A stretch of DNA of 26,412 nucleotides, taken from assembly GCA_041742355.1 (NCBI GenBank), contig JBGSIV010000220.1, positions 1-26,412 of the forward strand, in the 5' to 3' direction. This document shows positions 21,001-24,000 of this stretch, in pieces. The DNA is from Candidatus Zixiibacteriota bacterium. GTDB taxonomy: Bacteria; Zixibacteria; MSB-5A5; GN15; FEB-12. Made by a program: the position numbers. Position 1 is the stretch's first letter. Every line of letters begins with the position of its first letter.

Positions 21001-24000
21001 GCGCTGATCACGGCCGTTATCACCATGCTCCTGTCGTTCTTTCTCTGGGGCATGTTCGACAAGATGGCCCTCGGTATGCAATTCGAGATCGACACGCCGT
21101 GGGTGACCTCGCTGGGAATCCACTACCACCTCGGGATCGACGGCATCTCGCTGTTGCTGATTGTGCTCACCACGGTCCTGACCGTCCTCGCGATCCTCGC
21201 TTCGTGGCACTCGATCACAAAGGATATCAAGGGCTACTTCATCTCGATGCTCCTGTTGCAGGTCGGGATGATCGGCGTGTTTGTGTCGCTCGACCTCTTC
21301 CTCTTTTATGTCTTCTGGGAGGTCATGCTGATCCCGATGTACTTCATCATCGGGCTATGGGGCGGCCCGCGCCGAATCTACGCGGCGATCAAGTTTGTGC
21401 TGTTCACGATGTTCGGCTCGCTCCTCATGCTGGTCGGCATCATCTGGCTCCTCTTTGCCTACCACGGCTTCGCGGGCGAGTACACCTTTGACATCCTCAA
21501 GCTCTCGCAGATGCCGATCGGATTCCGGGAGCAATTGCTGCTCTTCGGGGCGTTTGCGCTGGCCTTTGCCATCAAAGTCCCGCTCTTTCCGTTCCACACG
21601 TGGCTGCCCGACGCTCACGTTGAAGCTCCCACCGCCGGGTCGGTCATCCTGGCCGGCGTGCTGCTGAAAATGGGGACGTACGGTTTCATCCGAATTTGCC
21701 TCCCGATGTTCCCCGATGCGACAGTCGCCTACCTGCCATACATCGCCGTCCTCTCGGTCATCGCGATCATCTACGGCGCGCTCGTCGCGATGGTGCAGAA
21801 AGACGTCAAGTCGCTCGTGGCGTTTTCGTCGGTCTCCCACATGGGTTTCGTCATGCTGGGAATCTTCGCGCTGAACCTCCAGGGTATGGAGGGGGCGATC
21901 ATGCAGATGGTGAACCACGGCGTTTCCACAGGGGCGCTGTTCCTTCTCGTCGGCATGCTCTATGACCGCCGCCACACCCGCCTCATCGAGGAATTCGGGG
22001 GCATCGCCAAAGTCATGCCGGTTTACTCGACCTTCTTCATGATCGTCGCCCTGTCGTCCATCGGCCTGCCGTTCACCAACGGCTTCGTGGGCGAATTCCT
22101 GATCCTGCTGGGCGCCTACGATCGGTCGGCAATTTACGGCGTTCTCGCGGCCTCCGGCGTCATCTTCGCCGCCGCCTACATGCTCTGGATGTACCAGCGG
22201 GTCATCTTCGGCAAAGTCACGAACCCGGCCAACGAGAAACTGATCGATATCGACTGGCGGGAGAGGATTATCCTGATCCCGCTGGTTGTGCTCATATTCT
22301 GGATCGGGATTTATCCCAAGCCGTTGTTCGAACGGATCGAACCGGCCGCGCAGCAGGTGCTCCTGAAAGTGGGGCGGGCGCAGTCGGTCGAGCTCGACGA
22401 TCAGTTCCGGGTGAACAAGGTCACCGTGGTGGATGTTACTGAAGAGAAACATCCCACGACGGTGGGGCTGAACCCGGAAGAAGGAGACGTGAAGTGAGCA
22501 ACGTCCTGATGTATGTCAAAGACGGCTGCCCATACTGCGCCGCCGCGATCAAGCACTATTCGGAGCAGGGGGTGCCGGTCGAGCAGATCAACGTGCACCG
22601 TGTCCCCGGCGCGAAAGAGAAAGTGCTGGAGCTGACCGGCGGCACGGCCATCGTGCCCGTGATTATCGAAGACGGCCAGGTCAAAAAGGGCTTCGGCGGC
22701 GGCTGAGGTTTCTAACAAGTGCGGGCGGCAGGTTGTCGCCCTCCGGGAAAGGCAATGATAGATCTCACATCGGCAGGACTTGACTTCGCGCTCATAGCGC
22801 CGGAACTGGCGCTGATGATTGCTGCCTCGGTCATACTTCTGACCGGCTATGTCAAGAACCTCGGTAAGCTCAGCCCGTCTATCGGGCTGCTCGGCCTGGG
22901 CATCGCTATGGCCCTTGCCATCACCCACTGGGGCCGCCAGCACTCCGGCTTCTTCGGCATGGTCACTAACGACAACTTCGGTATGGCCTTCAAGGTCATC
23001 GCCGCGGGCACCTCGATGCTCGCCCTCCTCATGTCGCAGCGGTGGCTCACGGTCCGTGGGTACAACCGGCCGGAGTTCTACGCCCTTCTGCTGATGTCGA
23101 CTATCGGCATGATGGTCATGGCGAACACGACCGACCTCGTGGTGCTCTTCCTCGGGCTCGAGGTCATGTCGGTGCCGCTCTATGTGATGGCCGGCTACGC
23201 GAAGCGATCCCTTGAATCCAACGAGTCGGGCCTCAAGTACTTTATCATGGGCGCGTTCGCCAGCGCGTTCCTTCTCATGGGAATCGCGTTCGTGTTCGGT
23301 GCGGCCGGCACAACCGACCTGCGGCGCATTGTCGCCGACTTCACGTTCATCCTCGACCGGGCCGACACCTACCTGTTCGCCGGGACCGCGATGGTCCTGA
23401 TCGGGTTTGCGTTCAAAGTCGCGGCGGTACCTTTCCACGCCTGGGTTCCCGATGTCTACCAGGGCGCCCCGACCCCGGTAACGGCCTTCTTCTCGGTCGG
23501 ACCCAAGGCGGCCGGGTTTGCCGCGCTCCTGCGGATTTTCATGTTCGGCTTCGTGTCCCTTGAAATACTCTCGCAGGTGTTCTGGGTGCTGGCTGTGCTC
23601 ACGATGACCGTGGGCAACGTGTTGGCCCTGCGGCAGGGGAATATTAAACGACTGCTGGCCTACTCATCAATCGCCCACGCCGGGTATATCCTCGTGGCGC
23701 TGGCGGTGGGCGGGCCGGAGGCGATGTCGGCGGCCATTTTCTACCTTGTCGGCTATGCGTTCTTCAACCTCGGCGGGTTCGCCGTGGTGACGCTTATCGA
23801 GACGCGGTCCGGAAGCAAGGCGGAGTTCAGCGAGCTGCCGGGGCTGGCGAAAGCGCATCCGTACCTGGCGGTGGTGCTGGCGCTGTTCATGTTTGCCCTC
23901 TCGGGTTTCCCGCCGACAGTCGGGTTTTTCGGGAAGTTCTACCTGTTCTCGGCGGCGGTGAAGGCCGACTTCATCTGGCTGGCGATCATCGGGGTCATGA

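Follow-up and report, generated by a model that had tools for sequence, protein, structure and literature searches.

A predicted selenoprotein gene of the Uxx-star glutaredoxin family between nuoM and nuoN of the complex I operon in Zixibacteria

The window, that is the whole stretch of DNA analysed, spans 26,412 nucleotides (contig JBGSIV010000220.1 of assembly GCA_041742355.1, positions 1 to 26,412) from a Candidatus Zixiibacteriota bacterium. Matches to Pfam and NCBIfam models place a complete set of complex I genes in it: nuoA to nuoN follow one another in sequence on the + strand, spanning 9503 to 24203. Between nuoM and nuoN lies a small additional gene, hereafter grx, which starts with the GTG at 22494, shares its first 4 nt (GTGA) with the end of nuoM and is translated as VSNVLMYVKDGCPYC...KKGFGGGUGF*, the codons between the in-frame TGA and the TAA being GGT TTC. 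Its product carries a CxxC site and scores 91.3 bits with the Uxx-star model NF041212, whose cut-off is 66 (92 bits in a six-frame search of the genome), and 41.9 bits with the Pfam Glutaredoxin model PF00462. The first-pass annotation had described a CxxC glutaredoxin gene at this place, overlapping nuoM by 4 nt and ending with selenocysteine three residues before the stop, the UGA having been mistaken for the stop by the gene caller, and all of this was borne out. It had put nuoN 42 nt past grx; the nuoN start lies 48 nt past the TGA and 39 nt past the TAA, a trivial difference.

Table 1. Positions of grx, its neighbours and its sequence elements in the window.
Feature	Coordinates	Strand	Basis
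nuoA to nuoL, remainder of the 14-gene operon	9503..20891	+	Pfam and NCBIfam matches
nuoM	20899..22497	+	TIGR01972, 634 bits; stop TGA 22495-22497 overlaps the grx start
Shine-Dalgarno-like GAAGGAG (putative)	22480..22486	+	7 nt 5' of the GTG start; read from the sequence
Uxx-star glutaredoxin-like selenoprotein gene (grx)	22494..22715	+	73 codons + TAA; translation
CPYC active-site codons 12-15 (C12, P13, Y14, C15)	22527..22538	+	C12, P13 and C15 invariant in 51/51 sequences
UGA, predicted selenocysteine, residue 71	22704..22706	+	in-frame TGA, same column in 51/51 loci
True stop codon TAA	22713..22715	+	stop at codon +3 past the TGA in 50/50 parsed loci
SECIS-like hairpin, grx-nuoN spacer	22723..22741	+	stem 22723-22730/22734-22741; apical loop GGU 22731-22733; RNAfold
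nuoN	22755..24203	+	TIGR01770, 439.9 bits; ATG 22755 aligns with residue 1 of relatives

Judging from the overlap, grx would be translated off the nuo mRNA and coupled to nuoM. A scan of positions 20800-24500 for promoters and terminators gave counts at shuffle level, with none at the grx-nuoN spacer. Contigs from RNA libraries of two studies cover grx, at depths of 2-3.7 and in small shares for which DNA carry-over is possible. One RNA-library contig, from a relative, runs from grx through the TGA and the hairpin into nuoN; with the same carry-over possible, this is a weak hint.

The reading of the TGA as selenocysteine was examined across the phylum. All 51 dissected loci end in U-x-x-stop, with the in-frame TGA in the same column, and no variant with Cys was found. 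Exactly two sense codons separate the TGA from the stop in all 50 parsed loci. The first is GGN in 47 of them, with all four synonymous codons in use, and GAY in 3; the second is TTT, TTC, ATT, ATA or TAC. Such synonymous wobble in the two codons past the TGA fits translated sequence. In a second collection of loci, which shares some genomes with the first set, the TGA again lay a few codons from the end of the gene (80/80 loci). Since TGA also serves as the ordinary stop of nuoM, about 200 nt upstream, recoding must be local. The selenocysteine machinery is present in this genome: selA (492 bits), selD (378 bits, with an in-frame TGA of its own), tRNA-Sec (66.8 bits) and selB, the last in two pieces at contig ends (N-terminal 197.6 bits, C-terminal 106.8 bits). 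In the phylum sample, selA was found in 146 of 151 genomes. These patterns in the sequence identify grx as a selenoprotein gene with a predicted selenocysteine three residues from its end. Its annotation is systematically wrong, since in every genome gene callers cut it short at the UGA.

A SECIS-like element, which the first-pass annotation had left unmodelled, is present 3' of the UGA in the form of a covarying hairpin. In the 50 loci folded, it starts 13-20 nt past the TGA. The core helix comprises 5 bp; of its cells, 86.8% are paired, versus 69.4% after shuffling and 23-61% in slid controls; cells with double changes number 43 versus 9.6 after shuffling, and compensatory changes occur in all five pairs. 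One G of the loop is invariant across the loci, and the model also recovered a locus that had been held out (L065). Rfam has no family matching the hairpin. With so little coding sequence left after the selenocysteine, which is three codons from the end, the hairpin falls beyond the stop, within the short grx-nuoN spacer. UGA-71 would thus be decoded as selenocysteine through a SelB-type hairpin, the hairpin itself resting on sequence and covariation. One may ask whether the TGA is instead an ordinary stop, closing a 70-residue CPYC glutaredoxin, or whether UGA and hairpin regulate the translation of nuoN. Termination at the TGA by gene callers would agree with the former, and the hairpin does end 13 nt ahead of the nuoN start codon in this window. 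Nevertheless, the two conserved, wobbling sense codons before the second stop, the TGA close to the gene end throughout the partly overlapping second collection and the selenocysteine machinery speak against an ordinary stop, while the distance from the second stop to nuoN ranges from 29 to 263 nt, so that the geometry between hairpin and ribosome site is not conserved. We regard either proposal as very improbable; selenium-sensing control of nuoN by the hairpin was rejected on the same range of spacer lengths.

The family to which grx belongs is already catalogued (Haft & Tolstoy 2025, as cited in PMC13188914). The product falls below the equivalog cut-offs of the named Uxx-star families 1, 2 and 3 (NF041114, 62 bits against 72; NF041211, 56.5 against 100; NF047338, 55.9 against 97), and grx represents a new, context-bound subfamily within that family. 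The genome holds only this one Uxx-star copy. An AF2 model of the product reached a pLDDT of 93.9, with an ordered tail, in which residues 71-72 and 53-54 form short bridges, the latter just before an invariant V54-P55 of the cis-Pro type. The best Foldseek matches are glutaredoxins (TM 0.79-0.80), some of them bound to glutathione. The product is thus a minimal glutaredoxin, beta-alpha-beta-alpha-beta-beta, that ends directly after the GG turn: the chain stops at residue 73, two past the GG-U, and lacks the GG-x-D-D motif and the C-terminal helix. In a profile alignment the selenocysteine column coincides with Cys66 in 'FLGGC' of PDB 4tr0_A, so that selenocysteine appears to stand, next to the CPYC site, where Grx3-type glutaredoxins have the additional Cys of their GGC(DD) motif. 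A tree of 81 glutaredoxin sequences was unresolved at 73 columns and names neither donor nor direction.

From these features we propose that grx encodes a small cytoplasmic thiol/selenol oxidoreductase. The tethered Sec-Gly tail may act as the Cys-Gly of glutathione does. Selenocysteine would form a selenenylsulfide with Cys12, a geometry derived from the alignment and from secondary-structure strings, and Cys15 would resolve it; the freed selenolate, on its glycine hinge, could then attack thiols that have become oxidised, or peroxides, in client proteins. The resulting disulfide would probably be recycled by thioredoxin reductase, for which the genome has a match of 348 bits (cut-off 343). 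The glutathione synthetase gene gshB (TIGR01380) was not found in this genome, which is 93.8% complete, and a lack of glutathione is thereby unproven.

In a phylum sample of 151 genomes, wider than the 61 searched earlier, 107 passed the NF041212 cut-off. Sixteen genomes had matches at E<=1e-5 below that cut-off; the eight of these loci that were read hold other glutaredoxin-like genes and were discarded, five being active-site GUxxC selenoproteins at other places. The order nuoM - grx - nuoN was present in 50 of the 51 dissected loci, the remaining one being cut by a contig end, and the claim of a fixed order is thus upheld across much of the phylum. A second collection of 50 phylum loci, partly from the same genomes, had nuoM upstream in 50 and nuoN downstream in 49. 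The gap between the nuoM stop and the grx start was -14 to +5 nt in 46/50 loci. Within the gene-bearing families, intact grx is kept in 107 of about 114 genomes.

In a NuoM tree, the 49 gene-bearing rows all fell into one clade (SH-aLRT 92), which fits a single insertion of grx in a subclade of the phylum. In basal families the orthologous nuoM abuts nuoN and grx is absent (15 orthologous loci). Inside the gene-bearing clade, grx has been lost in five genomes: four losses are deletions of 121-193 nt, at least three of them with recognisable remnants of the gene, and the fifth is clean. The copy of a sixth genome is frameshifted. In all of these genomes nuoM, nuoN and selA are still intact. This history of a single gain, lasting retention and several clean deletions has left sister lineages that differ in grx and can be compared directly.

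The first-pass annotation had gone further, making the product a complex I partner, namely a dedicated fifteenth subunit or an assembly factor. The fixed position within nuo stands. The dedication does not: besides the basal absence and the losses, the genome's two other nuo clusters have no grx, and operons with and without grx cannot be told apart by any column of NuoM or NuoN. The Cys at NuoM position 267, for example, is found in 49/49 gene-bearing rows and in 4/4 rows with a deletion or remnant, and also in 7/15 gene-less rows; paralogue rows have it in 0/12. Because of the basal absence, the losses within the clade, the frameshift and the clusters lacking grx, the gene must be dispensable for complex I.

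A stably bound fifteenth subunit, sitting for instance on the cytoplasmic face of NuoM-NuoN in the membrane arm with a selenium-dependent structural or redox role, would match the fixed position and the translational coupling to nuoM. Genes that are neighbours in an operon often encode proteins in contact, and complex I has precedents for such accessories in the thioredoxin-fold NDUFA2 of mitochondria and in Nqo15/Nqo16 of Thermus. Yet the deletions leave the rest of the operon intact and basal families do without the gene, no residue of NuoM or NuoN is linked to its presence, and the AF2 model and Foldseek show an ordinary soluble glutaredoxin fold that carries no additional element for docking. 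Going by these comparisons, we consider a true subunit quite improbable. A functional tie of a looser kind is plausible, its basis being gene order, translational coupling and retention. A tightly conserved operon will, by itself, keep any gene inside it in position.

Outside the phylum, 0 of 30 homologous loci lay near nuoM or nuoN, and the Uxx-star family is therefore not intrinsically a complex I protein. Five of the eight Acidobacteriota loci have citrate synthase upstream, and four loci have RidA/TPR/GAF neighbours. Such unrelated contexts would suit a general cytoplasmic redox protein, or a selenium-dependent antioxidant one, which landed once in the nuo operon, has no client in complex I, and stays because the cell benefits from it and the surrounding operon cannot be moved. 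The single insertion in the NuoM tree, the repeated loss of grx while nuoM and nuoN were kept, and the lack of co-varying residues in either protein all agree with this, and being the only Uxx-star copy of its genome, grx could serve the whole cell. On the other hand, retention is high and relocated copies were 0 among the 101 loci examined; a close overlap with nuoM has been conserved; and presence in one of three nuo clusters would be an odd dosing for a general housekeeping reductase. We hold a passenger without a complex I client to be unlikely, though an explanation to be taken seriously.

Among loci labelled Actinomycetota, 7/13 have a heavy-metal P1B ATPase gene as their immediate upstream neighbour, in the same orientation, and an eighth locus has one within 400 nt; 7/8 of the ATPases examined pass TIGR01525 and the cadmium-family model TIGR01512. 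At a Thermincola locus, a gene for a CsoR-type metal repressor is found 2 kb upstream. The ATPase neighbours in Actinomycetota speak for a role with metals no less than for one in thiol repair. CxxC and selenocysteine might make a three-ligand site that buffers or hands over ions of the Zn/Cd/Hg/Cu type, serving the P1B export ATPase in Actinomycetota and, in the present phylum, shielding complex I from metals that inhibit it or damage its iron-sulfur centres; Zn and Cd inhibit the proton channels of complex I. Foldseek neighbours of the product include 'Metal Binding of Glutaredoxins' entries and the ArsD metallochaperone. However, Pfam finds no metal gene within this window, and the ATPase neighbourhood could be explained equally well by maintenance of thiols in the CxxC domains of the pump itself. 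A role in soft-metal handling appears improbable to us.

Our preferred explanation, to which we give somewhat less than even odds (roughly 0.45), is that grx encodes a context-bound, selenocysteine-recoded Uxx-star oxidoreductase with a redox relay, which is an accessory of complex I. Acquired once within the phylum, it would be beneficial yet dispensable and no core subunit, most likely an accessory co-produced with complex I. Since it would be made at the membrane together with subunits of the membrane arm, the cysteines that it serves would most likely be those in complex I or immediately around it. If the tie is real, grx would be the first case of a selenoprotein joined to respiratory complex I, would mirror in bacteria the thiol-based maintenance that the mitochondrial enzyme receives from glutaredoxin 2, and would hand the uncharacterised Uxx-star family a function that can be tested.

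A wider conjecture, for which we claim only a small chance, takes Uxx-star proteins as self-contained glutaredoxins, their Sec-Gly tail replacing glutathione, that were recruited through translational coupling as attendants of cation-translocating membrane machines, where they would re-reduce cysteines or clear soft metals. Two recruitments would be at hand, to complex I in Zixibacteria and to heavy-metal P1B-ATPases in Actinomycetota, with re-reduction or soft-metal clearing taking place at cytoplasm-facing cysteines or channel mouths. If these proteins are indeed such attendants, the performance of complex I in Zixibacteria would depend on selenium. The position behind heavy-metal pumps gives a second, independent handle on Uxx-star chemistry.

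Literature searches on UXX-star, on selenocysteine or glutaredoxin in Zixibacteria, on glutaredoxin with nuoM and nuoN, and on glutaredoxin-like selenoproteins with NADH-quinone oxidoreductase did not bring up the nuoM-grx-nuoN arrangement, although Haft & Tolstoy 2025 may mention the neighbourhood. New here are the single insertion in the NuoM tree, the losses within the clade, the paralogous nuo clusters free of the gene, the contexts in other phyla and the alignment of selenocysteine with GGC. With the Uxx-star proteins of NF041212, grx shares the glutaredoxin fold with CxxC, the selenocysteine third from the end and a score above the cut-off; it differs from the three named families in scoring below the cut-off of each, in being bound to one lineage and in its fixed place between nuoM and nuoN.

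Classical glutaredoxins hold the gamma-glutamyl end of glutathione by a C-terminal helix and acidic residues. With Grx3/NrdH-type proteins (4tr0/4tr1 cGrx2, 1fov/3grx E. coli Grx3, 1h75 NrdH), the grx product has in common the CPYC, the V-P motif of the cis-Pro type, the fold (TM 0.74-0.80) and the alignment of its selenocysteine column with the extra Cys of 'GGC'. It departs from them in lacking the helix and the acidic residues, in having selenocysteine instead of Cys, and in a host genome (93.8% complete) where glutathione synthetase was not found. In animal thioredoxin reductase and TGR, a C-terminal Gly-Cys-Sec-Gly tail shuttles electrons to and from a dithiol centre, and in TGR the partner of the tail is a CPYC glutaredoxin domain. 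TGR chains are among the sequence matches of the grx product, whose selenocysteine near the end of a glycine-rich tail may be seen as analogous. By contrast, the grx tail has no adjacent Cys and no flavoprotein, tail and domain make up one 73-residue chain, and the SECIS is of the bacterial type.

CopZ is a metallochaperone for P1B-ATPases, and the likeness of grx to such proteins lies in its being a small CxxC protein with Actinomycetota relatives encoded directly behind such pumps; here its neighbour is complex I, not a pump, and a metal role is putative. Action of a glutaredoxin on a heavy-metal pump is described for human Grx1 and ATP7B (PMC7057996). A precedent for a tie to complex I is mitochondrial glutaredoxin 2, which is reported to act on that enzyme through glutathionylation of NDUFS1 (PMC9598259, PMC4233936). 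Glutaredoxin 2 and NDUFA2 resemble grx in being thioredoxin-superfamily proteins tied functionally or physically to complex I, with homology seen here at the level of fold class. They differ in belonging to eukaryotes, in either depending on glutathione or lacking catalytic activity, in having no selenocysteine and in not being encoded in an operon.

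The gene for the glutaredoxin-like selenoprotein (here grx) follows nuoA to nuoL, found in canonical order by profile matches, and nuoM. Its GTG start is overlapped by the nuoM stop TGA (22495-22497), GAAGGAG lies 7 nt upstream, and 39 nt separate its TAA from the nuoN start; a site scan found nothing promoter-like or terminator-like in this spacer. Translated with TGA as selenocysteine (Sec), it gives 73 residues, VSNVLMYVKDGCPYC...KKGFGGGUGF. As translated by table 11 (70 residues), the product reaches 91.3 bits on NCBIfam NF041212 ‘Uxx-star family glutaredoxin-like (seleno)protein’, whose cut-off is 66, and 41.9 bits on Pfam Glutaredoxin; it falls short of the cut-off in each of the three named Uxx-star families (62 against 72 bits, 56.5 against 100 and 55.9 against 97). 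A genome-wide search found no other Uxx-star copy.

Features of the window and of the loci compared with it
Feature	Location	Strand	Remarks
nuoM	20899-22497	+	TIGR01972, 634 bits
NuoM residues 490-532	22366-22494		hydrophilic C-terminal extension, ~40 residues past family profile end
grx	22494-22715	+	GTG...TGA GGT TTC TAA, read from sequence
hairpin	22723-22730 paired with 22734-22741	+	loop GGU; RNA folding
nuoN	22755-24203	+	TIGR01770, 440 bits
CHASE2-domain Ser/Thr protein kinase gene	24380-26398	-	convergent to nuo operon end
selD	source genome (G000), contig C212:3483-4403 (locus L012)		in-frame TGA
selB, split	G000, contigs C4:42224-42736 and C18:8027-9349
nuo cluster 2	contig C250 (locus L194, 5149-8133)		nuoM and nuoN 6 nt apart, without grx
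nuo cluster 3	contig C259 (locus L195, 10949-19998)		nuoF to nuoM, then unassigned ORFs of 83 and 769 residues; without grx
Uxx-star genes adjoining ATPases, Actinomycetota-labelled	loci L161, L162, L167, L169, L170, L171, L175, L190; gene at ~2990-3220 of each

All four parts of the Sec machinery are present in the source genome (4.37 Mb in 310 contigs, completeness 93.8%): selA (492 bits), selB, in two pieces at contig ends directly after selA, selD (378 bits) and tRNA-Sec (66.8 bits). With its in-frame TGA, selD probably encodes a selenoprotein itself; a second selD-like piece lies at the end of contig C106. Since nuoM ends at an ordinary TGA about 200 nt upstream, recoding of the grx TGA must be local. 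We dissected 51 loci, namely the window, 30 from the phylum search and 20 picked from more distant families. The C-terminal end reads U-[G/D]-[F/I/Y]-stop in all 51, and in none of them does Cys replace Sec at that column. Eleven rows of the phylum search marked ‘no stops inside’ were profile matches ending short of Sec, and the TGA was found in all seven inspected. Among 50 loci, the first codon after TGA is GGN in 47 (GGA 24, GGT 9, GGC 8, GGG 6) and GAY in 3, the second is TTT (24), TTC (19), ATT (3), ATA (2) or TAC (2), and the third is always a stop. Conserved residues with synonymous wobble past the TGA look like translated sequence. The proposal of the first-pass annotation, Sec three residues before the end, thus holds in every dissected locus, with the wobble pattern and a full Sec machinery behind it, and that the TGA is a plain stop or a regulatory device is hardly credible.

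A hairpin starts 13–20 nt past the TGA in all 50 loci folded. With Sec three codons from the end, it lies almost wholly past the stop codon, within the spacer before nuoN. RNAalifold on 49 sequences (L047 was left out for its N bases) gave a 5-bp core in which each of the five pairs shows compensatory changes, and a covariance model built from this alignment recovered all 49, plus one locus from outside the training set (L065, 24.6 bits). After realignment of 50 sequences, fitted to that model and hence biased towards structure, 86.8% of cells were paired versus 69.4% ± 1.5 in shuffles (0 of 500 as high), and both sides had changed in 43 cells versus 9.6. Sliding the 3' partner by 1 to 3 columns lowered pairing to 23–61%; as these controls and unfitted MAFFT counts agree, the structure is supported despite the fitted alignment. 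In the loop one G is invariant and the base after it is mostly U; E. coli SelB recognises G-U in a GGUC-type apical loop. No Rfam family matched the hairpin.

The place of the gene, which the same annotation had held to be fixed, proved so in a larger sample. Across the phylum, grx scored over the cut-off in 107 of 151 genomes sampled, and the order nuoM-grx-nuoN was seen in 50 of the 51 dissected loci, the exception (L064) having a contig end 189 nt upstream. A second collection, 80 more loci partly from the same genomes, was scanned by the peptide pattern YTKxGCPYC; in its 50 loci of nuo type, nuoM is upstream in 50 and nuoN downstream in 49 (L120 ends just past the gene). In 46 of 50 loci, -14 to +5 nt separate the nuoM stop from the grx start; tight coupling of grx to nuoM is well supported. 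The spacer to nuoN is usually ~30–70 nt, versus 175–263 nt in three loci (L037, L068, L069). Judged from sequence, we regard the gene, its Sec codon, the SECIS-type hairpin and the fixed place as firm. Low-depth contigs of the region occur in three metatranscriptome runs from two studies: one covers 22533-22734 at ~98% identity, a second, from a relative at 90% identity, 22596-22801 (gene end, TGA, hairpin and 47 nt into nuoN), and a third the nuoM 3' end. Since presence in an RNA library is no proof of transcription, these contigs hint only weakly at co-transcription.

In a quick IQ-TREE of NuoM (80 rows, LG+G4, rooted on 12 paralogues), a single clade (SH-aLRT 92) takes in all 49 gene-bearing rows, which fits one insertion. 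Families f9, f14, f6, f7 and f15 lie outside it, with the forks among them unresolved. In 20 of the genomes without a match, an orthologous nuoM (51–74% identity) abuts or overlaps nuoN directly in f6, f7, f9, f10, f14 and f15. Retention is long, 107 of ~114 genomes in the gene-bearing families being intact; a single insertion followed by long retention is well supported by these comparisons. Four in-clade genomes (three f1, one f2) carry deletions of 121–193 nt relative to intact sisters. What is left is the first ~27 nt, the last ~90 nt and the hairpin in L073, the last ~45 nt including GF..U..stop in L074, at most the first ~25 nt in L075, and start plus hairpin in L076; these genomes are natural knock-outs alongside intact sister lineages. 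An error in a metagenome-assembled genome could mimic one such loss, but hardly four with differing break points. Also inside the clade, one f12 genome (G068) and both f10 genomes have no grx between nuoM and nuoN, and in an f4 genome (G123, locus L196, upstream of nuoN) a one-base frameshift interrupts the gene midway with the tail GFGGG-U-GV-stop still readable; this copy is a recent pseudogene or else an artefact of assembly. One genome with a contig end at the locus (G044) was kept out of the loss tally. Because selA passes its cut-off in 146 of the 151 genomes and is kept where grx is lost or broken, loss of the Sec trait does not account for the grx losses.

The first-pass annotation took grx for a selenium-dependent fifteenth subunit or an assembly/repair factor of complex I. 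Against a role as core subunit, the gene is deleted within its own clade, and the basal families and two paralogous nuo clusters of the source genome lack it. In a column comparison, no NuoM or NuoN residue tracked its presence; Cys267 of NuoM is invariant in 49 gene-bearing and 4 deletion or remnant operons, and 7 of the 15 operons that lack grx have Cys there as well. With the different contexts in other phyla described below, a true subunit is very unlikely. We favour, at a probability of roughly 0.45, a dispensable thiol/selenol oxidoreductase that is co-produced with complex I and probably serves it. That grx is a hitch-hiker with no client in complex I seems unlikely; the want of a tracking residue and the natural deletions are set beside tight coupling and long retention.

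Thirty loci of the second collection are not of nuo type (Actinomycetota 13, Acidobacteriota 8, the rest Eremiobacterota-type, Bacillota, Spirochaetota and Bdellovibrionota). All carry a TGA two to five codons from the end (and YTKxGCPYC by construction), and nuoM and nuoN are absent from the 3 kb around each of them. Citrate synthase is upstream in 5 of 8 Acidobacteriota loci, TPR, RidA and GAF neighbours occur in four Eremiobacterota-type loci, and in Thermincola a gene for a CsoR-type repressor sits 2 kb upstream. Such unrelated contexts show that a link to complex I is not intrinsic to the Uxx-star family. Of the 13 Actinomycetota loci, 7 have a same-strand gene for an HMA-domain P-type ATPase (Pfam) immediately before the Uxx-star gene, and in an eighth such a gene lies ~390 nt upstream; two more have an ORF where the HMA domain alone was detected, and rhodanese and AhpC/TSA genes are frequent nearby. 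Seven of eight ATPases tested pass TIGR01525 (heavy-metal) and TIGR01512 (cadmium-family) and fall just short of the copper model; by NCBIfam these pumps are P1B-type ATPases of the cadmium/zinc/mercury/lead kind. This neighbourhood suggests a second reading, soft-metal handling, in agreement with a review that remarks on a possible metal-ligand role for the Sec of UXX-star proteins (PMC13188914); there is also a precedent, human glutaredoxin-1 handing Cu(I) to ATP7B domains (PMC7057996). For grx itself we consider a soft-metal handler quite unlikely. The family is already catalogued in NCBIfam and, according to the same review, by Haft & Tolstoy 2025. The nuoM-grx-nuoN arrangement was not found in the literature searched, which lay outside Haft & Tolstoy 2025, and we rate the nuoM-bound gene as a new, context-bound form within a known family.

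Our preferred oxidoreductase reading can be set against known glutaredoxins. Invariant in 51 sequences are C12, P13 and C15 of the CPYC active site, V54, P55, G69 and U71. AlphaFold2, given the 51-sequence alignment, predicts beta-alpha-beta-alpha-beta-beta with an ordered tail (pLDDT 93.9, pTM 0.82), and its nearest neighbours by fold are small glutaredoxins: 4tr0/4tr1, the glutathione-bound cGrx2 (TM 0.79–0.80), E. coli Grx3 and NrdH. A thioredoxin reductase is encoded in the genome (348 bits); a profile search of this 93.8%-complete assembly gave no match to glutathione synthetase. Separate glutaredoxin/NrdH-like selenoproteins with Sec in the active site (GUxxC) are encoded in the phylum at other genomic places (loci L103-L107, ~2480-2730 each, oriented), under the Uxx-star cut-off. 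In the DSSP assignment of the grx model, residues 53-54, immediately preceding the V-P motif, and residues 71-72 each form an isolated two-residue bridge. These bridges would fit a tail placed at the site that glutathione's cysteinyl-glycine takes in glutaredoxin-glutathione complexes. The GGC(DD) motif of glutaredoxins lines the glutathione groove beside the active site. In a profile-to-PDB alignment, the Sec column stands opposite Cys66 of ‘FLGGC’ in 4tr0_A, the extra cysteine of that motif; grx has Sec there, and since its chain ends two residues past this column, it has neither the acidic residues nor the last helix.
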